Notes under the pieces: model-generated
What the model was told of the DNA's origin: nothing
What the model saw: only the letters and a program-made list of their open reading frames with translations
The model's database searches: none
In this document: positions 6,900-23,074 of the stretch, one piece after another
How positions within the stretch are numbered: position 1 is the first letter of the stretch
How the letters are laid out: every line of letters begins with the position of its first letter
Assembly: GCA_021835025.1 (NCBI GenBank)
Contig: JAKBQY010000057.1
Coordinates: 61,358-125,357, forward strand
Direction: 5' to 3'
Source: Thermoplasmata archaeon
GTDB taxonomy: Archaea > Thermoplasmatota > Thermoplasmata > Thermoplasmatales > Thermoplasmataceae
DNA: 64,000 nt
Program-made: the position numbers and the translations under genes

Positions 6900-8003
6900 A
6901 TGAATCTATATGAATATATGGGGAAGGAAATATTTAAAAAGTATGGTATACCCGTTCCAGATGGGTATAAAGTTGACAAAGTTGCAGATTTAAAGCAATA
7001 CGAATTTCCTGTTGCGGTTAAGTCCCAGATATTATCGGGCAAAAGGGGAAAAGCCGGAGGAATAAAATTTGCCAAAAGTGAAAATGAACTAAAGGAAGAA
7101 TCAGAAGAACTTTTAAATTCAAAAATTAATGGATTGCAGGTTGAGGCATTACTTATAGAGAGGATGCTGGATATTAAGAAAGAGCTTTACCTGAGTATAA
7201 CGCTGGACAGAGCATCAAAAGCACTTATTATAATCATGTCAACCGAGGGGGGAATGGATATTGAAAGTGTTCCGGAAAATAAAATACACAAAATTGTAAT
7301 AGACCCCTTAATTGGATATTCCGACTATATATCAAGAGAAGCTGCTGAGTTTCTTGAAATGGATGGTAGCCTTAAGAAACAGTTTTCTTCAATATTATCA
7401 AACCTTTACAATGCTTTTATGGGAGAAGATGCACTTTTAATGGAAATAAATCCATTGATAATAGACAAAACAGGTAATATCATTGCAGGCGATTCAAAGG
7501 TCACAATTGATGATAACGCCTTATTCAGGCATAAAAATCTTGTGATAAATGATCCGGAAAAGACCGAGCTTGAAAATGAGTCCGCTTCGAAAAGCTTTAC
7601 ATTTATCGAAATGGATGGACATATAGGAGTTATAGCAAATGGAGCGGGATTGACGATGGCAACGTTGGATGCCCTCACATTGCATAAATTGAAACCAAGA
7701 AACTTTCTGGATCTCGGCGGTACGGATAATATTGAAATAGTTGAGGAAGCTTTTTCCTTTGTTTTAAGGGTTAAACCTGAAATACTATTTGTTAATATAT
7801 TTGGTGGTGTCACAAAAGCTGATACAGTAGCCAATGGTATAGTATCGTCAAAGAAGAAATTCAATATAAAGCAACCTATTGTTGTGAGATTAAGTGGAAT
7901 ACATGAGGAAGAAGGGAGGAAAATACTTATGGACAATGGAATAAAGGCGTTTTCCGATATGAATAGTGCAATAAATGAATTGGCAAAAATGAAAGGGGTG
8001 TAA
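6900..8003 (+). CDS. sucC: Succinyl-CoA synthetase beta subunit
   Basis: MNLYEYMGKE, GKRGKAGGI, NGAGLTMATLD, NFLDLGG motifs. Confidence 0.95.
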   Translation: MNLYEYMGKEIFKKYGIPVPDGYKVDKVADLKQYEFPVAVKSQILSGKRGKAGGIKFAKSENELKEESEELLNSKINGLQVEALLIERMLDIKKELYLSITLDRASKALIIIMSTEGGMDIESVPENKIHKIVIDPLIGYSDYISREAAEFLEMDGSLKKQFSSILSNLYNAFMGEDALLMEINPLIIDKTGNIIAGDSKVTIDDNALFRHKNLVINDPEKTELENESASKSFTFIEMDGHIGVIANGAGLTMATLDALTLHKLKPRNFLDLGGTDNIEIVEEAFSFVLRVKPEILFVNIFGGVTKADTVANGIVSSKKKFNIKQPIVVRLSGIHEEEGRKILMDNGIKAFSDMNSAINELAKMKGV

Positions 8004-8006
8004 TAA

Positions 8007-8858
8007 ATGGTTGTAGTAAATAGCAATACAAGAGTTATAGTGCAAGGTATGACAGGTCATCAAGGTGCGTTTCATTCAGGTGAAATGATAAAATTCGGAA
8101 CCAAAGTTATTGCGGGAGTATCTCCGGGAAAATCGGGAACAAAGGTAAATGGCGTAGACATATATGAAACGGTTTACGATACATTAAACTTGCATCCTGA
8201 TGCTTCAATGATATCAGTTCCAGCTCCATTTATAAAAGATGCAGCAATGGAGGCCATTGATAATGGCATAAAACTCATATATATATTAACAGAACATGTT
8301 CCCGTCCAGGATACAATGGAAATAGCTGCAGAAGCCAAAAGAAAAAATGTTTTCATGATAGGACCAAACAGCCCTGGAATAACCGTTCCAAACGAATGCA
8401 AGATAGGTATTATGCCAAACCATATTTTCAGGAAGGGAGATATAGCCATAGCATCAAGAAGTGGTACATTAACATATGAAATAGTTAAGGCTGTTACAGA
8501 TGCAGGATTTGGAGAGAGCACAGTAATTGGTCTTGGTGGTGATCCAATAATAGGCACAACATTCTCCGATATTATCAAAATTTACAATGAGGACCCAGCA
8601 ACCAAGAAGATAATTCTTGTTGGTGAAATTGGTGGAAGCGAGGAAGAAAAAGCTGCAGCATATATAAAGGAACATGTTAAAAAACCAGTGGTAGGATACA
8701 TTACCGGAAGAAGCGCTCCCCCAGGAAAGAAAATGGGACATGCGGGGGCAATAATTGAAAAGGGAACAGGAACAGCAGAATCAAAGATAAATGCCTTTGA
8801 AAGTGCTGGCATAAAGGTTGCGGAATACCCAAATGACATACCGAAATTATTAAAATAA
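8007..8858 (+). CDS. sucD: Succinyl-CoA synthetase alpha subunit
   Basis: QGMTG, IGPNSPG, SRSGTLTYE and phospho-His motif KKMGHAGA. Confidence 0.96.
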   Translation: MVVVNSNTRVIVQGMTGHQGAFHSGEMIKFGTKVIAGVSPGKSGTKVNGVDIYETVYDTLNLHPDASMISVPAPFIKDAAMEAIDNGIKLIYILTEHVPVQDTMEIAAEAKRKNVFMIGPNSPGITVPNECKIGIMPNHIFRKGDIAIASRSGTLTYEIVKAVTDAGFGESTVIGLGGDPIIGTTFSDIIKIYNEDPATKKIILVGEIGGSEEEKAAAYIKEHVKKPVVGYITGRSAPPGKKMGHAGAIIEKGTGTAESKINAFESAGIKVAEYPNDIPKLLK

Positions 8859-8951
8859 ATATTTTATGGCATTCATTCACTAAAATTTTATTTTATTTTT
8901 TGAATTTATAATTCAGTATAATCTTTATATAGTATTTTTAAATGATTATAT

Positions 8952-9236
8952 ATGAATCCATCAGTGGAACTTAAAAAAATGGAAGATTATGTAATGGAAA
9001 ATTCGTCATTCAAACTTTATACAGACGGTGAAAAAGCGGAACTTCATTTTGTGCCAAATACACCTGAGGCCGAGGTTCATTTCCCAGACGGTATGCCAGT
9101 TGAACATATTATGTATGGGGATCTTGATGATGGAGTGATAATTTTCCATAAATTTGTTACGGTAAGTAATTATGGACAAACAGAAACAGAAATTTTAGAC
9201 GACGATCCGATAATGGAATGGCTAAAATATATATAA
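8952..9236 (+). CDS. Hypothetical acidic protein (94 aa)
   Basis: ATG ORF filling the gap between sucD and korA; no recognised motif. Confidence 0.65.
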   Translation: MNPSVELKKMEDYVMENSSFKLYTDGEKAELHFVPNTPEAEVHFPDGMPVEHIMYGDLDDGVIIFHKFVTVSNYGQTETEILDDDPIMEWLKYI

Positions 9237-9346
9237 AATTTTGAATTTCGTTATATAATTTTTATTTTTATCTATTTAAATATTGATATTTATAAGTTAA
9301 CACTTATAATCCGATAAAAAAGTATTTAAATAATTTATGCCTATAT

Positions 9347-11257
9347 GTGCCGATTAAAATGCAGGAAACTGACATAAATCTTCTTGTGGGTGGTCCACAA
9401 GGCGGAGGTATAGATAGTTCTGCCAATATGATTAATATGGCATTCTCTTTAGCAGGATATAATATTTTTGGGGTTCGTGAGTTCCATTCAAATATTAAGG
9501 GTCGACACAGTTATATCCACCTGAGGGTAAAACATGAACGCCCCGGTTCATTAAAATATCCAGTTGACATTATGGTTGCACTTGATCCGGATACATTATT
9601 TGAGCACATGCTTGACGTTTCCAAGGGGTCAAAAATAATTTATGATTCAGCCTTTGAAAAATTTGAATTAAAACAGGCTAGGATGATAACATTGGACACT
9701 ATGAGCAGAATAAGATATGAGCTTGAAAACAGAAAATTACCATTGAATATTAATGGTGTCCTTGAATATTTTAAATCGGTTGGAGTCATTCTTGTATCCT
9801 TGCCGTTTGATAAAATAATCAATAAGAATTTACCTGAAGGCCCGGCTACAAGATACTATAATACACTAGGTGCTGGTGCAACAATGGCCATTATAGGCCT
9901 TGATATAGAACATGCCAATGATGGAATAAAGTATGCTTTCAGGAAGAAACCTGCTGTTATTGAATCAAATTTAAAGGTTGTAAAGGGAGGATATGATTTT
10001 ATCAAGGAAATGGGCCTTGAGGCTGAAAATCTTGAGGTATATCCCGTTAAACCAAGAATGCTTTTGAATGGAAATGATTCCGTAGCAATAGGAAAATTAA
10101 TGGGTGGGTTGCGATTCCAGACATATTATCCAATCACACCCGCCAGTGATGAAAGCAATCTGCTTGAAAACCATGAAGAGATGAAATTTTTAAAGGGGGA
10201 AGCTGAAAAACTTAAAACAGCAGGCCTTGTTGTGGTTCAAACAGAGGATGAGATTTCAGCCATAAATATGGCAAATGGAGCCGCATTAACTGGAGTGAGA
10301 AGTTCTACAGCCACATCTGGACCTGGATTTTCACTGATGTCAGAGGGCATATCATACGCTGGAATGACAGAAATTCCAGTTGTGGTTACATTGTATATGC
10401 GCGGTGGACCGTCAACGGGTCTGCCAACAAGAAATGGACAGGCTGATCTTTTGTTCGCAATCAATACAGGGCATGGTGAATTTCCAAAAATGGTCATTTC
10501 TTCAGGGGATATGGAAGAATGCGTTTATGACGCAATGAAGTCCCTGAATTACGCACAGAAATATCAGATGCCAGTAATACATATAATAGACAAAACACTT
10601 GCAAATACAATGGATCTTGTACCAGAAATAGATTTAAAGAAAATTAAAATAGAAAAATATGAAGAAAACAAAAACCACGAGGATTACAAAAGATTCTCAC
10701 TGAATACTGACACAGGCATATCACCATATGGTGTATTTGGCAAGGATATATACTGGATTACCGGCGATGAGCATAATGAATATGGGCATATAACTGAAGA
10801 TGTCTCAATGAGAGATAAGATGATGGAGAAAAGAAGGAAAAAACTTGAAACTGCTGATAGGGAAATACCATTGAATGACAAGGTTGAACTGTATGGTGAG
10901 AAAAACGCCGATATCACATATATTACATGGGGAAGCCAGAAAACATTATTGCTTGATGCAATCAAGGAACTTAAAAAGAACGGCATAACTGCCAATCTTC
11001 TGTATATAAAGATGTTTGTTCCCTTTGCATCAGATTATGTTGAAAAGGTATTGAAGAATGCAAATACTGTGATAGATGTTGAAAGCAATATGAATGCCCA
11101 GGCTGCGCAGGTAATAAGAATGAATACAGGAATTAAAATAGAAAATTCCATATTAAAATATAATGGAAGACACATGACTTTAGATGAGATATTAAAGTCA
11201 ACAAAAAAGATAATGAAAGAAAAAACAGAAGTTGAGGTGCTTGAAAATGGTTCATAA
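9347..11257 (+). CDS. korA: 2-oxoacid:ferredoxin oxidoreductase alpha subunit (gamma-alpha fusion)
   Basis: GGPQGGG, YYPITPAS, EDEISA, TATSGPGFSLM and RGGPSTGLPT motifs. Confidence 0.94.
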   Translation: MPIKMQETDINLLVGGPQGGGIDSSANMINMAFSLAGYNIFGVREFHSNIKGRHSYIHLRVKHERPGSLKYPVDIMVALDPDTLFEHMLDVSKGSKIIYDSAFEKFELKQARMITLDTMSRIRYELENRKLPLNINGVLEYFKSVGVILVSLPFDKIINKNLPEGPATRYYNTLGAGATMAIIGLDIEHANDGIKYAFRKKPAVIESNLKVVKGGYDFIKEMGLEAENLEVYPVKPRMLLNGNDSVAIGKLMGGLRFQTYYPITPASDESNLLENHEEMKFLKGEAEKLKTAGLVVVQTEDEISAINMANGAALTGVRSSTATSGPGFSLMSEGISYAGMTEIPVVVTLYMRGGPSTGLPTRNGQADLLFAINTGHGEFPKMVISSGDMEECVYDAMKSLNYAQKYQMPVIHIIDKTLANTMDLVPEIDLKKIKIEKYEENKNHEDYKRFSLNTDTGISPYGVFGKDIYWITGDEHNEYGHITEDVSMRDKMMEKRRKKLETADREIPLNDKVELYGEKNADITYITWGSQKTLLLDAIKELKKNGITANLLYIKMFVPFASDYVEKVLKNANTVIDVESNMNAQAAQVIRMNTGIKIENSILKYNGRHMTLDEILKSTKKIMKEKTEVEVLENGS

Positions 11258-16049: not shown

Positions 16050-16360
16050 TTTAACACCACCATGTTTTAAAAATTACCATGCATCGACATTAATAAATAA
16101 AATATAATATTTTGCTTTAAAAAAAGCATTTTAATTGGTTTTCCCCCAAAAAAATTATCGGTTATTCCATTTTTTTTCTCACTGAATTACACTCATCTCT
16201 CATTCTTTTAATCTTCTTCCTTGGATTTCGAGTCGTGAATTTCTGAAACTCACTTATCCTCAATTTTAAATTTCGTATAGATAAAAATTTAATGAAAATC
16301 CAAACGAAAAGAACTTTACAATTTTATTTTCTTAAATTTAACTTATAAAAATAAAGATTT

Positions 16361-16534
16361 TCAGGGTGTTAATACTGAAATCAAAAATATTATGAACCCC
16401 ACAATTACAAAGTATACCGTACCTGTTATCGTTGCTCCTTGTATGAATTTATAATAGAGACCCCCCATTTCTATCAAGAATAGCCCAAGAAAGAATAATG
16501 GATATCTCCATGCCGATTTCATGAATTTGTGCAT
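16361..16534 (-). CDS. Small two-TM membrane protein (about 57 aa) at the end of the second sdh operon
   Basis: ATG 5 nt after the anchor-gene stop; two hydrophobic segments. The track's longer start overlaps the anchor gene. Confidence 0.55.
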   Translation of the reverse strand: MHKFMKSAWRYPLFFLGLFLIEMGGLYYKFIQGATITGTVYFVIVGFIIFLISVLTP

Positions 16535-16539
16535 GGCAA

Positions 16540-17289
16540 TCACAACCTGAATAGTAGGATGTTTATGGGCAGTCCTACTGCAACGCCCCTTATGAAGAGA
16601 TCTACAAGAAAGAATGAGGCCAGGCTCATCCATGCGAATGTTTCATGGTTATTGTTGAGTTTTGAAATAGCATTGAATAATGGTCTTCTTGCACTCTTCT
16701 TATTTACTGGACAGCTGTAACAATCAACATTTCCACCGGTAACATGCCTGAAGAAGTGGCAGGAAAATGTATATATTACTGCCCAGAACGTATTCCATAT
16801 AAGCAACAGCGCCCCAAGTGTAAATGTGCCATTATAGGAAAGAGCCACATATATATCAAAGAAAAAGAATGGCAATATTGCAACTGCCGCATACCAGAAA
16901 TATCTGTGAAGATTCTCAAGCCTGAAAAAGTTCGTTTCGCCAACATATAATCTCCCCCTTTTTTCACCAGAGATGTCCATTTTCTTCTGGGCATCTCTGA
17001 ATGATGTTACTTCGCAGGCCATGGGATGCTTGAAAAGATGCCTGTGATAGTCCTTTCTATAGGCATAACATGTGGCACGAAAACCAGCAACAAGTGGAAG
17101 CACCAGAATTGTTGGTGCGTAAAATGGATCCGTTAAACCTTCGACCGGTTTTGACATTGCAAATTCAGTCATAAGATATATTGCAAGCAACACAAGCAAT
17201 ACAAAAGACCAGAATCTGATCGTGCCGAATTCTCTTGGAAATTTTACCACTTTCTCCATTTTTTCTTTATCCTTTACACTGAATGACAT
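16540..17289 (-). CDS. Membrane anchor of mycobacterial Sdh1-like (type F) succinate dehydrogenase
   Basis: FRATCYAYRK, ENLHRYF, YTFSCHFFRHVTGG and NHETFAW match the Rv0249c-type anchor pattern as recalled; about 5 TM segments. Confidence 0.82.
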   Translation of the reverse strand: MSFSVKDKEKMEKVVKFPREFGTIRFWSFVLLVLLAIYLMTEFAMSKPVEGLTDPFYAPTILVLPLVAGFRATCYAYRKDYHRHLFKHPMACEVTSFRDAQKKMDISGEKRGRLYVGETNFFRLENLHRYFWYAAVAILPFFFFDIYVALSYNGTFTLGALLLIWNTFWAVIYTFSCHFFRHVTGGNVDCYSCPVNKKSARRPLFNAISKLNNNHETFAWMSLASFFLVDLFIRGVAVGLPINILLFRL

Positions 17290-18042
17290 TTACCTCACCA
17301 CCTTCTCCTTTTTTCTTCTGCCCTTAATTAACATGGCAATAGGATCGTACTGTCTATCAACATTCCTCTCTTTTTCCTGTATAATTGCATTATCAGTAAT
17401 TTTTATGTGTTCCGGGCATACATCTGTACAACATTTTGTAATGTTGCAATACCCCAATCCCCCCTCATTGTTAAGGAATTTAGAGCGATCAAGGGCGTCA
17501 AGGGGGTGCATGTCCCACGATGCAGCCTTTACGATATACCTTGGACCAAAATATGGAGTGTAATGTTCCCTGATAACATGGCATACATCCATACATAGGA
17601 AACATTCTATACATCTCTTGAATTCCTTTGATCTTTCAACGTCCTTTGGATTTATTTTCCAGGGTTCTTCCATGCCTTCTCTTGGAGAAAACATTGGGAT
17701 CTTTCTGGCAATTTCCCAATTCTCAGAGATATCAGTAACAAGGTCCTTAATCAGAGGAAAAGATGCCATTGGTGCAACTGTTATATCCTTTCCAAGTGTA
17801 TCCACTTTTGTTTTGCACATAAGCGATGGTTTTCCGTTAATCTCCGTTGAACAAGAGCCACATTTTCCAGCCTTGCAATTCCATCTTATGGATAGCGTCG
17901 GATCAATATTTTCTTCAACATATCTAACCGTGTCAAGCACAGCCATCCCCTCAATATATGGAACGCTGTATTCAACAAACTTTCCCTCGTTTTCCGTCTC
18001 AGGATCGAACCTGAAAACATGCACACTTATATTTTCGCTCAT
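17290..18042 (-). CDS. sdhB: Succinate dehydrogenase/fumarate reductase iron-sulfur subunit (complex 2, Sdh1-like)
   Basis: RWNCKAGKCGSCS, CIECFLCMDVCHV and GLGYCNITKCCTDVCPEHIKITDNA, characteristic of the Rv0247c-type family. Confidence 0.93.
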   Translation of the reverse strand: MSENISVHVFRFDPETENEGKFVEYSVPYIEGMAVLDTVRYVEENIDPTLSIRWNCKAGKCGSCSTEINGKPSLMCKTKVDTLGKDITVAPMASFPLIKDLVTDISENWEIARKIPMFSPREGMEEPWKINPKDVERSKEFKRCIECFLCMDVCHVIREHYTPYFGPRYIVKAASWDMHPLDALDRSKFLNNEGGLGYCNITKCCTDVCPEHIKITDNAIIQEKERNVDRQYDPIAMLIKGRRKKEKVVR

Positions 18043-19760
18043 TTATACACCTCTGGTTTAACGTAAGCTTTGAATTCCTCTGGCATTTCTTTCGTTTTCT
18101 CTGTTTCATACACTATCTCATTTTTTTCTCCACGATAAACAACAATACTCTTTCTCCAGTTTTTATCTTTTTTTGGAAAATCGCTTCTTGTATGTGCACC
18201 CCTGCTTTCTTCCCTCATCAAAGCGGATGTTGCCGTGGCTTCACAGGATATTAACATGTTCTCCAGTTCAAGGCATCCAAGCAAGCCGTGGTTGTATTTC
18301 ATTCCGCCCTTCGTGCCGACATCAGGGAACTCTTTTTTGAGTTCATTTATTATCTCTATGGCTTTCTTCAGGTGTTCTCCATCTCTGACAATTCCGACAT
18401 TTTCACTCATGCACGTCATGAGCCTATCCATAAGGGCATATGGATTCTTTCCATCTTCCTTAAAGAGGTCATTTATGTGCTTTGTAATACTCTCTACCTC
18501 GTTTTGATCAATTTTCTCCAGCTTTGATGAAAGGGCATATTGTGCAGCAGAATCACCTGCCCTTTTTCCAAACACCAGAATGTCAGCAAGTGAATTGCCT
18601 CCAAGCCTATTTGCCCCATGCAACCCAGAAGTAACTTCGCCCGCTGCAAAAATATTCTCAATATTAGATTTTCCAGATTCTGCTTCAACTTCAATCCCAC
18701 CCATCATATAGTGTACAGTTGGTGCCACTTCCATTTTTTTCTTCGTTATGTCAATATCTGCGAATTCAAGAAATTGTTGATACATAGCAGGGAGTTTGTT
18801 TTTAATGAAATCAGGCCCTTTAAAGGATATATCGAGATAAACACCTCCGTGTTCCGTTCCACGGCCATCCATGATTTCTTTATAAATGGCCCTTGCAACA
18901 ACATCCCTTGCATCCAGTTCCTTCTTTTCAGGTGAATATTTTAACATGAATCTTTCATCTTTGGAATTTAAAAGAATTCCGCCCTCTCCCCTTACACCTT
19001 CAGTTACCAGAACACCTTTAACACTTGGTGGATAGACCATACCTGTTGGATGGAATTGTACCATTTCCATATCCTTCAACTTAACACCGGCGCGGTATGC
19101 AATTCCCAATCCATCCCCTGTGGATTCCCACGAATTTGATGTGACCTTAAAAACACGCCCTGAACCTCCAGTGGCAATGACGATTGCTTTTGTCCTAAAA
19201 ATGTAACGTTTGCCATCATTCATTTTTATGCCATATGCCCCAACAATTTTATTATTATTCTTGATCAAATCAACAATATAAATCTCATCAAGAAATTGTA
19301 TATTTCTGTGTAAAATTTGATCCTCCAATGTTTTTATAAGTTCAAGGCCTGTTCTATCACCAATGTGGGCAAGCCTTCTATAGGTATGTGCACCAAAAGC
19401 TCTTTGCATTATCCTCCCATCCGGCGTTCTGTCAAACAGAGCTCCATATCTTTCAAGTTCAAGAACTCTTTCCGGTGCCTCTTTTGCCAGTAATTCTGCC
19501 ATTTTCCAATCCGAAATATAAACGCCTTCTTCAATAATATCCCCAAAATGGACGGTCCAGTTATCTTTTGAATCAACATCACCAAGAGCGGCAGCTATTC
19601 CGCCTTCAGCCATTACGGTATGAGCTTTGCCCAGCAATGACTTTGACACCATTATTGGTTTTAGTCCAGCATCATTTACAGAAATGGCCGCCCTCATTCC
19701 GGCTCCACCGGCACCTATTATAAGAACATCAGATTCCAAAATTTCAAATTCATCATTCAT
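18039..19760 (-). CDS. sdhA: Succinate dehydrogenase/fumarate reductase flavoprotein (complex 2, Sdh1-like)
   Basis: GAGGAG, KAHTVMAEGG (Rv0248c-type), QFHPTG, HGANRLGGNSL, ESRGAHTR. Confidence 0.94.
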   Translation of the reverse strand: MNDEFEILESDVLIIGAGGAGMRAAISVNDAGLKPIMVSKSLLGKAHTVMAEGGIAAALGDVDSKDNWTVHFGDIIEEGVYISDWKMAELLAKEAPERVLELERYGALFDRTPDGRIMQRAFGAHTYRRLAHIGDRTGLELIKTLEDQILHRNIQFLDEIYIVDLIKNNNKIVGAYGIKMNDGKRYIFRTKAIVIATGGSGRVFKVTSNSWESTGDGLGIAYRAGVKLKDMEMVQFHPTGMVYPPSVKGVLVTEGVRGEGGILLNSKDERFMLKYSPEKKELDARDVVARAIYKEIMDGRGTEHGGVYLDISFKGPDFIKNKLPAMYQQFLEFADIDITKKKMEVAPTVHYMMGGIEVEAESGKSNIENIFAAGEVTSGLHGANRLGGNSLADILVFGKRAGDSAAQYALSSKLEKIDQNEVESITKHINDLFKEDGKNPYALMDRLMTCMSENVGIVRDGEHLKKAIEIINELKKEFPDVGTKGGMKYNHGLLGCLELENMLISCEATATSALMREESRGAHTRSDFPKKDKNWRKSIVVYRGEKNEIVYETEKTKEMPEEFKAYVKPEVYK

Positions 19761-19839
19761 TAAAATCCACCCATATATTTAATAAATGCTTTTATCGGTA
19801 TAAATTTTATGAAAACGACGATTGTGTAACTATTTTGCT

Positions 19840-20386
19840 GTAAATTTAATGGGGTCTTCCATATTCAGTTAGAGATGATAAAAATGAAAAACCCAGATGG
19901 AGTATTGAAAGAGTTAATAAAAAGTTATCTATTAGATCTATGTCGATCATTGAGGGTTATTAGGAAATGTCTATTCATTTATCTCATTGAATATATCCAA
20001 TAATGATATATTCTTATGATTCAATTCGAATTCAATGTTTTCGAGTTTAATTGATTTTATTTTATTTTATCAGGCAAGTTTTTTATTGAAATTCCTAATT
20101 TTCTAAATATATTCAAATTCTTATAGAATAAATTAAAAACCTCCCTTGAAAAAATTGTATCCCTTATCATACCATTTTCACTGAAAATTTTTCTCATGTC
20201 TATAAAAATATATGGTATTTTCATTTCATTTAGACCTGATCTTAATAGACTCGTTTTCCCTGACCTTCTTATTCCATATATTACCGTTAAAGGTGAATTT
20301 TCGATCGATAATTTCAAATCGCCAAATTCCTCTGTTCTATCAAAAATGTCGCTCATGGATGTTTTAGGAACTATATCAAATAACAT
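19840..20386 (-). pseudogene. Degraded archaeal AAA+ ATPase (PF01637-like) pseudogene
   Basis: N-terminus DIFDRTEE...YGIRRSGKTSLL (Walker A) stops at codon 110 in an (ATAAA)x3 repeat. ATPase-like text continues in shifted frames (IKSIKLENIEFEL...SLLDIFNEINE*, later LNMEDP). Confidence 0.75.
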
Positions 20387-20870: not shown

Positions 20871-21848
20871 ATGGCAAATAAAAAAATATCTGTTATTGGC
20901 GCAGGAGCAGTTGGTGCTAGTGTTGCCCAGGTACTTGCTATAAAAGACCTTGGGGATATATATATTTTTGATATAGTTGAAGACATAGCTTCTGGAAAGG
21001 CCCTGGATATACAGGAGGGAGCCCCACACTGGGGATTCAATTCAAAGCTTAAGGGATTTTGTACAAAGGACGAAAAGGAATATGAAAATATGAAGGGATC
21101 CGATGTAATAATAGTTACAGCAGGATTGGCCAGAAAACCAGGAATGAGCAGAGACGATCTTCTAATTAAGAATATAGGAATCATGAAGGATGTTGGAGAA
21201 AAAATTAAAAAATATTCACCTGAATCGATAATAGTAACAGTAACAAACCCTGCTGATATTATGGCATATGTTATACAGAAAGCGTCTGGAATTGATCCAT
21301 CAAGGATAATAGGACTGGGGGGATCTCTTGATAGTACAAGATTTAGAACATTTTTAGCTGAGGAACTGCATGTTTCAGTACAGGATGTAAATGCCTTTGT
21401 GATTGGTGGACATGGTGATGATATGGTTCCATTCATAAGATACTCAAATGTGTCAGGAATACCAATATCGGATCTTCTGAGTAAAGAAAAAATAGAAGAA
21501 ATTGTTAAAAGGACAAGATTGGGAGGGGGAGAGATTGTCAACCTTTATAAAACTGGGAGCGCCTTCTATGCACCTTCAATATCCATAACTGTTATGGCAG
21601 AGTCTGTTTTAAAAAATCAGAAAAGAGTAATACCATGTGCTGCATATTTAACAGGTAAACACGCAGAACATTATGAAATAAACAATATGTTTATAGGAGT
21701 ACCGATAAAAATAGGCAAAAATGGTGTTGATGAGATATTTGATCTTAAAATGAACGAGGAGGACAAAAAACTCTGGGAAAAGAGCGTAGATTCTGTTAAG
21801 AAGAATTGCAAGATTGCTGATGATTTCCTTGCTGGCAAATTAAACTGA
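20871..21848 (+). CDS. mdh: Malate dehydrogenase (LDH-like)
   Basis: GAGAVG, TAGLARKPGMSRDDL, VTNPAD, LDSTRF, GGHGD, RTRLGGGEI. Confidence 0.96.
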   Translation: MANKKISVIGAGAVGASVAQVLAIKDLGDIYIFDIVEDIASGKALDIQEGAPHWGFNSKLKGFCTKDEKEYENMKGSDVIIVTAGLARKPGMSRDDLLIKNIGIMKDVGEKIKKYSPESIIVTVTNPADIMAYVIQKASGIDPSRIIGLGGSLDSTRFRTFLAEELHVSVQDVNAFVIGGHGDDMVPFIRYSNVSGIPISDLLSKEKIEEIVKRTRLGGGEIVNLYKTGSAFYAPSISITVMAESVLKNQKRVIPCAAYLTGKHAEHYEINNMFIGVPIKIGKNGVDEIFDLKMNEEDKKLWEKSVDSVKKNCKIADDFLAGKLN

Positions 21849-21946: not shown

Positions 21947-23074
21947 TTATCTTTCTGGCAAGGGTATGAAATCTCTTTTATCAAATCCTGTGTATATAGC
22001 CCTTGGTCTAATGAGCCTCTCTTCCTCCTCAACATATTCTGATATGTGTGCTGTCCATCCAAGTACCCTCGAAAATCCAAATAATGTTGTGAACATATAT
22101 ATGGGAAATCCAATTTCATTGAAGACAATACCGGAATAGTAATCCGTATTTGGATAGATCCCTTTTGAACCATATGTTTTAACTCCCAGATCCTCCAATT
22201 TTTCAGCTATTTCAAGGTTATTTTTCTGTTCATCTGTTTCAACAAGTTTCTTTGCTATTCCCTTGAATATCTTCATTCTTGGATCATAGGTTTTATAAAC
22301 TCTGTGCCCAAAACCCATCAATCTTTTATTGTTTTTAAGTATATTTTCATTGAACCATATTTCAACATTTTCCGATTTTTTTATTTCCAGTACCTGGTGG
22401 TATGCTGCTTCTGCGGCACCGCCATGCAATGGCCCTTTCAATGCAGCTATTGCAGCTGTAATGCATGAATACATGTCTGATAGGGTAGAGGAAGCAACAA
22501 GGGCGGCTGTTGTTGATGCAGGCACCTCATGATCAATATATATGATCAATGCAGAATTCATTGCATCTATTTTCTCCTGTGATATTTCATTAAAGCAGTT
22601 CCTGAGGAAAGCTTCGGCATAGCCATATTTTTTATCTGGATTTTTTAATTCCATACCCATCTTATGCCTGTATATGTTTGATATAATTCCAAGGTCTTCA
22701 CCCATAATCTTTGCTGCCTGTTTTCTATCATCATCACGGTTCCATTTATAATCACCAGAAGACATAGAAGCAAATGCAGTTTCCATCATTGTAAGAGTGT
22801 CCGTTTCCCTTGGGAGGGCAGCGATAAGTTCCAATACATGTCTTGGCAATTTATAGTGCCCCCTTAAATCATCAACAAATGATTTTAGCTGTTCGCCATT
22901 CGGAAGTTCCCCATATATCATCAGATATGATACCTCCTCAAATGAACAATTTTTAACCAGGTCATTTACATCATAACCACGATATCTCAATATTCCTTTG
23001 TTTCCGTCAATATATGTTAATTTAGTATATTTTATAAATACATCTTCCAGTCCTAAATTCACGGTTGTATCCAT
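21947..23074 (-). CDS. gltA: Citrate synthase
   Basis: GLEDV, LRYRGY, DHEVPAST, GPLHGGA, MGFGHRVYKTYDPR, PNTDYYSG. Confidence 0.96.
   Translation of the reverse strand: MDTTVNLGLEDVFIKYTKLTYIDGNKGILRYRGYDVNDLVKNCSFEEVSYLMIYGELPNGEQLKSFVDDLRGHYKLPRHVLELIAALPRETDTLTMMETAFASMSSGDYKWNRDDDRKQAAKIMGEDLGIISNIYRHKMGMELKNPDKKYGYAEAFLRNCFNEISQEKIDAMNSALIIYIDHEVPASTTAALVASSTLSDMYSCITAAIAALKGPLHGGAAEAAYHQVLEIKKSENVEIWFNENILKNNKRLMGFGHRVYKTYDPRMKIFKGIAKKLVETDEQKNNLEIAEKLEDLGVKTYGSKGIYPNTDYYSGIVFNEIGFPIYMFTTLFGFSRVLGWTAHISEYVEEEERLIRPRAIYTGFDKRDFIPLPER

Follow-up and report, generated by a model that had tools for sequence, protein, structure and literature searches.

Which kind of respiratory complex II is encoded by three contiguous minus-strand open reading frames (ORFs) at positions 19760–16540 of a 64,000-nucleotide stretch of Thermoplasmata archaeon DNA (assembly GCA_021835025.1, contig JAKBQY010000057.1, positions 61,358 to 125,357; hereafter the window), and how did this archaeon come by it? 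An earlier inspection of the letters alone, here called the sequence-only reading, had taken them for an sdhA2-sdhB2-anchor operon of a type F succinate dehydrogenase (SDH), similar to mycobacterial Sdh1 and probably acquired from acidophilic bacteria. The ORF listing of the window revealed that the genes for the flavoprotein (SdhA), the iron-sulfur subunit (SdhB) and the membrane anchor indeed form one unit, since sdhB overlaps sdhA by 4 nt and the anchor gene begins immediately past the sdhB stop, and all the motifs quoted in that reading were found in the genes it named. The operon is, however, one gene longer than it had described, because a gap of 5 nt separates the anchor gene from a gene of 57 codons that was missing from its description, and the unit extends to position 16361. 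The four minus-strand genes at 19760–16361 are assigned here, with a probability of roughly 0.85, to an archaea-branch type F respiratory complex II (succinate:quinone oxidoreductase).

The flavoprotein gene sdhA (18039–19760, minus strand, 573 residues) carries the Pfam domains FAD_binding_2 and Succ_DH_flav_C. The motif KAHTVMAEGG is placed at residue 45, with the His47 that links the flavin adenine dinucleotide (FAD) inside it, and the catalytic motifs FHPTG, LDARD, VHYMMGG and GANRLG could all be located. In a phmmer search against all PDB chains the best match was 7d6v_A (E 2.2e-171; the next, 2.7e-117), and the top NCBIfam model was NF005866/PRK07803, of the Rv0248c type, with 743 bits, which is under its cut-off of 819. 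The iron-sulfur subunit (sdhB, 17290–18042, minus strand, 250 residues) shows the RWNCKAGKCGSC motif at residue 53 and all three sets of cysteines, those for the [2Fe-2S] cluster (56, 61, 64 and 76) and those for the [4Fe-4S] and [3Fe-4S] clusters (144, 147, 150, 154, 199, 205 and 209). Its best match in the same search was 7d6v_B (E 5.4e-83; the next, 7.2e-31), and it scores 319.6 bits against NF009052/PRK12386, the equivalog of the Rv0247c type, exceeding the cut-off of 256. Of the two signatures matched to the Sdh1 family in the sequence-only reading, KAHTVMAEGG and RWNCKAGKCGSC, the latter is identical in the mycobacterial enzyme. Both subunits are closer to Sdh1 (Rv0248c/Rv0247c type) than to the other classes of complex II, and trees of concatenated SdhA and SdhB give 100% support to the type F clade when the outgroups are the type E enzyme of the window and the additional SDH that other Thermoplasmatales possess.

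The membrane anchor (16540–17289, minus strand, 249 residues, five predicted transmembrane helices) is not described by routine models: no Pfam or NCBIfam family scored above threshold, the Pfam scan gave no Sdh_cyt match, and neither a CCG motif nor the Pfam CCG domain was found by motif check and Pfam scan, so that the anchor lacks the CCG motifs of the other complex in the window, as had been noted before. The search of all PDB chains returned a single significant match for it, 7d6v_C (E 2.2e-25), and the structure 7D6V is therefore the top match for all three proteins. An AlphaFold2 model built on 116 homologues (predicted local distance difference test score, pLDDT, 76.8) displays five long helices, the number present in SdhC of Mycobacterium smegmatis (PMC8054011). 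Foldseek placed this model against the PDB with one significant match, again 7d6v_C (E 1e-6, template modelling score 0.57), and this single five-helix anchor is a fold found in no other PDB entry.

A closer inspection of the anchor located FRATC at residue 70 (Cys74), LHRY at 127 (His128), SCH at 176 (Cys177) and NHETFAW at 214 (His215). In M. smegmatis Sdh1 the ligands of the membrane Rieske-type cluster are His-C155 and His-C240, and Ala at both positions abolished quinone reduction (PMC8054011). Counted along the phmmer alignment, these residues fall opposite His128 (LHRY) and His215 (NHETFAW), respectively, a numbering that was cross-checked on the published quinone-site residues F147, I150, L151 and I154. 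Among 254 aligned anchors from archaeal and bacterial loci, C74, C92, H128, C177 and H215 are 100% conserved, and H178 and H182 are nearly invariant. Helices II and IV carry Cys74 and Cys177 at their cytoplasmic ends; conservation and helix position suggest that these two Cys are the remaining ligands, which together with the ligand His of helices III and V would enclose a cluster in the centre. The Cys/His/Cys/His set proposed in the sequence-only reading thus matches the Mycobacterium anchor at both published His ligands and at two of the Cys that are invariant across the family, Cys92 being a third. The quinone pocket of the M. smegmatis enzyme lies between the start of helix III and the C-terminus of SdhB and is lined by Phe-C147, Ile150, Leu151, Ile154 and Tyr-B236 (PMC8054011). 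The counterparts in the window are Phe121, Leu124, Leu127 and Tyr232 of SdhB, the last of which is placed opposite Tyr-B236 in a residue-by-residue alignment with 7d6v_B. The type F assignment holds because all three subunits have their best match in 7D6V, the His ligands align and the Cys/His set is invariant.

Several points weigh against this assignment. The main text of PMC8054011 names two His ligands only, and Cys92 is as invariant as Cys74 and Cys177. The anchor loop at residues 80–115 was modelled with a pLDDT below 50, and Ile150 of the M. smegmatis quinone site is replaced here by Arg123, an Arg being present at this position in 83% of the archaeal clade described below. The root of the trees rests on long outgroup branches, and an ancient interdomain transfer in either direction is possible. 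The enzyme of the window counts as an orthologue in an archaeal variant that is known but awaits experimental characterisation, the enzyme class itself being a known one; a full-text literature search, which did not extend to Hards et al. 2019 (FEBS Lett, where type F was defined) and the complex II survey of Karavaeva and Sousa 2023 (BBA), found no paper classifying the Thermoplasmatales enzyme.

In the scheme that can be proposed for this enzyme, succinate would be oxidised at the FAD covalently bound to His47 of SdhA, and the electrons would travel through the [2Fe-2S], [4Fe-4S] and [3Fe-4S] clusters of SdhB to the anchor. There, a Rieske-type [2Fe-2S] cluster at the cytoplasmic face of the membrane, probably ligated by Cys74, His128, Cys177 and His215, would receive them within a five-helix bundle free of heme. 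The acceptor would be a naphthoquinone, bound where the start of helix III (Phe121, Leu124, Leu127 and His128) and the C-terminus of SdhB (Tyr232) form a pocket, and by analogy with Mycobacterium Sdh1 no charge would be moved across the membrane. Of this picture, subunit homology, ligand conservation, the fold, the conserved fourth gene and the place in the tree are shown directly, and the cluster type, the absence of heme, the identity of the quinone and the direction of catalysis in the archaeal enzyme are inferred.

The second part of the question concerns the origin of the operon. The type F family splits into an archaea-only clade and everything else, with a Shimodaira–Hasegawa-like approximate likelihood ratio (SH-aLRT) of 88–90 under LG+G4; under LG+C20 with posterior mean site frequencies (PMSF) the archaea-only clade receives an ultrafast bootstrap (UFBoot) of 96 and an aLRT of 84, and it is present in 96% of the bootstrap trees. 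Rooting on other SDH types makes this clade the sister group of the bacterial type F clade as a whole, and the same division between the archaea-only group and the rest is recovered from the anchor alone. Its members are Nitrososphaerota, which are basal, Micrarchaeota/Marsarchaeota and acidophilic Thermoplasmatales, and the Mycobacteriales are placed deep within the bacterial side. Near the window the branching tracks taxonomy, with Cuniculiplasma-like metagenome-assembled genomes (MAGs) at about 80% identity, E-plasma at about 69% and other Thermoplasmatales at about 65%. The two sides also differ in gene order: the archaeal clade has sdhA-sdhB-anchor-small gene, and all 160 bacterial loci have anchor-sdhA-sdhB without the small gene. 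Gene order and fourth gene are differences of the archaeal branch, not defining biochemical features of the type F family.

These data bear directly on the claim that the operon came from acidophilic bacteria. A fairly recent gain of this kind by the Thermoplasmatales lineage of the window could be argued from the far greater diversity of type F in Bacteria, which account for more than 600 genome matches and for most of the 486 clusters (at 50% identity) that an exhaustive anchor search recovered among 1.84 billion representative proteins. The bacterial anchors come from Actinomycetota, Acidobacteriota, Chloroflexota, Melainabacteria, Myxococcota, Deinococcota, Armatimonadota, Planctomycetota and others. 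It could also be argued that interdomain transfer has occurred in this family, as other Thermoplasmatota carry a version of anchor-sdhA-sdhB order nested in the bacterial clade. Nevertheless, the same exhaustive search found no bacterial anchor closer than about 46% to that of the window, and no bacterial group or sequence of the sampled set branches within the archaeal clade, which spans four phyla and has its own gene order and fourth gene. The nearest relatives are Cuniculiplasma-like, at 73–82% identity, followed by other Thermoplasmatales in taxonomic order. Two contigs of the archaeal clade whose labels could suggest otherwise (bacterium and Methanothrix) are probably mis-binned. A recent bacterial import is therefore very improbable, and the acquisition proposed in the sequence-only reading is not supported; the operon belongs, with high likelihood, to an old archaea-specific branch inherited within acidophilic Thermoplasmatales. 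Regarding the two contigs, the locus labelled Methanothrix sp. MAG is near-identical to Micrarchaeota and the one labelled bacterium MAG is near-identical to Thermoplasmata, both being operons of the archaeal clade, and these labels are most likely binning errors in public MAGs.

Within the phylum the distribution of the enzyme is patchy. The anchor is present in 107 of the 301 Thermoplasmatota genomes sampled and in 7 of the 18 other genomes of the family to which the window belongs, and complete genomes of several genera are without it. A Cuniculiplasma sp. locus used for comparison has the same gene order and is 77% (SdhA), 82% (SdhB) and 73% (anchor) identical to the window. For Cuniculiplasma divulgatum a four-gene complex II of unclassified type has been listed (CSP5_0486–0489/CPM_0458–0461; PMC5155288), and it is probably the orthologous type F operon. 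A second type F lineage was found in other Thermoplasmatota families, probably marine groups, at fifteen loci from fifteen genomes, with the order anchor-sdhA-sdhB, no small gene, longer anchors than that of the window and an SdhA 46–51% identical to it. These operons belong to the same enzyme family and phylum and share the invariant Cys/His set. Nine of them, when placed in the tree, nest among Myxococcota, Latescibacterota and SAR324-like bacterial sequences, and this second lineage is probably of bacterial origin. Counting the clade of the window, type F therefore occurs in this phylum as two lineages independent of each other.

Comparison with Mycobacterium Sdh1 (MSMEG_0416–0420 of M. smegmatis and Rv0247c–Rv0249c of M. 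tuberculosis; PDB 7D6V/7D6X) shows what is common to both branches and what sets the archaeal one apart. SdhA and SdhB are 47–54% identical to their mycobacterial counterparts and the anchor 33–40%, and the two enzymes share the five-helix anchor, both His ligands, the three invariant Cys, the quinone-site Tyr of SdhB and an identical RWNCKAGKCGSC. On the other hand, the deepest split in the type F tree separates them; the SdhA of the window is about 60 residues shorter, the genes are arranged as A-B-anchor-small instead of anchor-A-B, with the 57-residue product encoded by a fourth gene, and the anchor itself differs at several positions. His82, His84 and His88 (YHRHLFKH, just past helix II) occupy positions held by Tyr, Ser and Ser in Mycobacterium, Arg123 replaces Ile150, and a Cys190/Cys193 pair is present. 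The three His residues are characteristic of the archaeal clade, where they replace Tyr, Ser and Ser or Asp. Every anchor of the archaeal clade has the CxxC pair formed by Cys190 and Cys193; among the other bacterial anchors about 65% have it, and it is absent from the Mycobacteriales, which carry instead a Cys at position 180 (Cys209 of M. smegmatis). Cys180 was found together with Cys190/Cys193 in one of 69 representatives and in none of the 170 loci whose genes stand in the bacterial order, which suggests that they are two alternative solutions to one structural or metal-binding role. Residues 180, 190 and 193 are encoded at 16711–16752 of the window, and their near mutual exclusion across the 254 loci is inflated by sequence relatedness.

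All 5 Cys and 7 His of the anchor are at least 92% conserved within the archaeal clade, and a Rieske-type cluster needs four ligands. Because eight conserved Cys/His remain beyond those four (Cys92, His178 and His182; Cys190 and Cys193; His82, His84 and His88), a second centre at the interface with SdhB is possible. The only structure solved, that of the Mycobacterium enzyme, has no CxxC pair and therefore could not reveal such a centre. It is accordingly put forward, as a tentative proposal held to be less likely than not, that archaeal type F comprises four subunits and houses an additional, so far unseen metal or redox centre in the cytoplasmic loops of its anchor.

The fourth gene of the operon (16361–16534, minus strand) encodes a protein of 57 residues with two hydrophobic, predicted transmembrane helices and the motif RYPxFFxG...G...GF...S, without any Pfam or NCBIfam match. 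It was traced by tblastn of the operon against 80 related loci, followed by a hidden Markov model (HMM) of the small protein run on their ORFs. An ORF coding for a homologue of 55–57 residues (33–74% identity) lies directly past the anchor gene in 77 of the 80 archaeal-clade loci and in 3 further genomes of the family to which the window belongs. The gene is kept across Thermoplasmatota, Micrarchaeota, Marsarchaeota and Nitrososphaerota, and in the last of these, where the order is anchor-small gene-sdhA-sdhB, it stays beside the anchor gene despite the rearrangement. The homologue of Cuniculiplasma divulgatum (P0271), 74% identical, is annotated as 'succinate dehydrogenase/fumarate reductase subunit D'. 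Run on the ORFs of at least 40 residues at 175 loci where the genes stand in the bacterial order (160 of them bacterial and 15 from other Thermoplasmatota), the HMM found no match, the best E-value being 0.37.

The protein is thus a candidate for a fourth subunit ('SdhD') in type F complexes of archaea, and a physical association with the anchor may be surmised from its gene's position. It might instead serve in assembly, or be some small, unrelated membrane protein whose gene travels with that of the anchor, and would then not be a stoichiometric subunit. Consistent with this, it shows no homology to any known SDH subunit, and the M. smegmatis enzyme functions with three subunits, the extra genes of its operon being unseen in the structure. 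This explanation is nonetheless rather unlikely, as the ORF adjoins the anchor gene in about 80 loci of four phyla with its length and motif kept, even in the rearranged Nitrososphaerota operons, and a linkage of such kind is typical of a physical partner. The reading as a candidate subunit is accordingly preferred. Two other possibilities for this ORF were considered and discarded. A longer form of 90 residues (16633–16361) was rejected in favour of the 57-residue one, since distant homologues align from the internal Met onward only; its upstream part looks conserved in close relatives because it overlaps the coding sequence of the anchor. An equivalence with MSMEG_0416/0420 is unsupported, as the HMM found nothing in the flanks where orthologues of those genes would lie.

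The type F operon is not the only complex II of this genome. A complete type E operon lies immediately downstream (16049–12175, minus strand), formed by sdhA1 (16049–14352) and sdhB1 (14350–13406), which pass the cut-offs of the models NF005037 and NF009226, a CCG/HdrB-like sdhE (13409–12537) and an ORF of 121 residues without Pfam match (12540–12175), all on the minus strand. As in the SdhABEF enzymes of Sulfolobales and Acidianus, type E complex II is heme-free like type F, but its anchor is a CCG/HdrB-like amphipathic protein and not a bundle of transmembrane helices, and its SdhA is 41% identical to that of the type F operon. These two SdhA proteins are the only paralogues in the genome. 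The adjacent type E operon distinguishes the window from the Cuniculiplasma-like loci sampled, which have none, and no second SDH was seen within 6 kb of the type F operon in the sixteen loci of the closest relatives. A second complex II operon flanks the type F operon in fourteen other loci and lies upstream of it in five more. Locus L052 (I-plasma), the only flank examined, contains at 6944–10333 a classical sdhA-sdhC-sdhD-sdhB operon with Sdh_cyt anchors of the heme-b type. Flanking operons are thus recurrent in Thermoplasmatales, and therefore side-by-side isoenzymes of complex II recur, with a partner type that varies by lineage.

The two operons of the window are separated by an A/T-rich spacer of 311 nt (16050–16360, minus strand). 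Direct reading of this spacer showed a T-rich tract directly past the stop of the 57-residue gene, and an A/T-rich promoter-like stretch and a predicted ribosome-binding site (GGTGGTG) ahead of the next sdhA. In the non-coding region upstream of the type F sdhA (19761–20056, minus strand) TATA-like A/T-rich boxes could be seen, together with a predicted ribosome-binding site (GGGTGGA) placed 8 nt ahead of the start. Further upstream lie a malate/lactate dehydrogenase gene (Ldh_1_N/C; 20871–21848, plus strand) and a citrate synthase gene (21947–23074, minus strand), which with both SDH operons make up a small neighbourhood of the tricarboxylic acid cycle.

The quinone that the enzyme would face was sought elsewhere in the genome. 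With the MqnC model, which has a cut-off of 428 bits, the adjacent MqnC-like and MqnE-like radical-SAM genes (contig C39, 26161–28980) reach 422 and 330 bits, and a MenA-like prenyltransferase gene (contig C3, 16588–17340) scores 97 bits against a cut-off of 102. These genes, just below their family cut-offs, indicate a menaquinone-type pool, probably made by the futalosine route, and therefore the enzyme would face the same quinone class as in mycobacteria. The need to work with archaeal membrane quinones, foreseen in the sequence-only reading, was in this respect overstated.

As to direction, the main activity of the enzyme in the cell could be that of a menaquinol:fumarate reductase, with succinate oxidation left to the type E complex beside it. 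The presence of two complex II operons side by side, with the sole SdhA paralogues of the genome, would fit this arrangement. SdhA of the type F operon also has thiol:fumarate reductase TfrA as its second-ranked NCBIfam model, and it carries a Glu in the HTVxAEGG motif, as does FrdA of Escherichia coli. The type E SdhA1, however, shares the Glu at this position, and the motif does not discriminate. With the low-potential menaquinone, fumarate reduction is the downhill direction (PMC4145680), yet M. smegmatis Sdh1 acts as a succinate dehydrogenase in vivo and in vitro (PMC8054011, PMC4145680). The direction of complex II catalysis cannot be inferred from sequence (PMC4145680). Taken together, a main role as fumarate reductase is conceivable but doubtful, and succinate oxidation is kept as the preferred reading.

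At the level of annotation, the locus corrects what routine pipelines give: neither Pfam nor NCBIfam offers a model for the anchor, many of its homologues are labelled hypothetical, and the 57-residue gene is easily missed. To our knowledge, work on type F complex II has dealt almost exclusively with its value as a target for anti-tuberculosis drugs, and its structure is known from one species. The family splits deeply into a bacterial and an archaeal branch, and many acidophilic Thermoplasmatales, Micrarchaeota, Marsarchaeota and Nitrososphaerota have the archaeal one as their normal, inherited complex II. With its extra candidate subunit and its extra conserved Cys and His residues, this branch offers a natural comparison for the role of the Fe-S cluster in the membrane, and setting both branches side by side bears on the coupling of heme-free complex II to menaquinone. 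The placement of type F beside a different complex II, of type E here and of the heme-b type in the I-plasma relatives, offers a system in which to study how isoenzymes share their work at very low pH.

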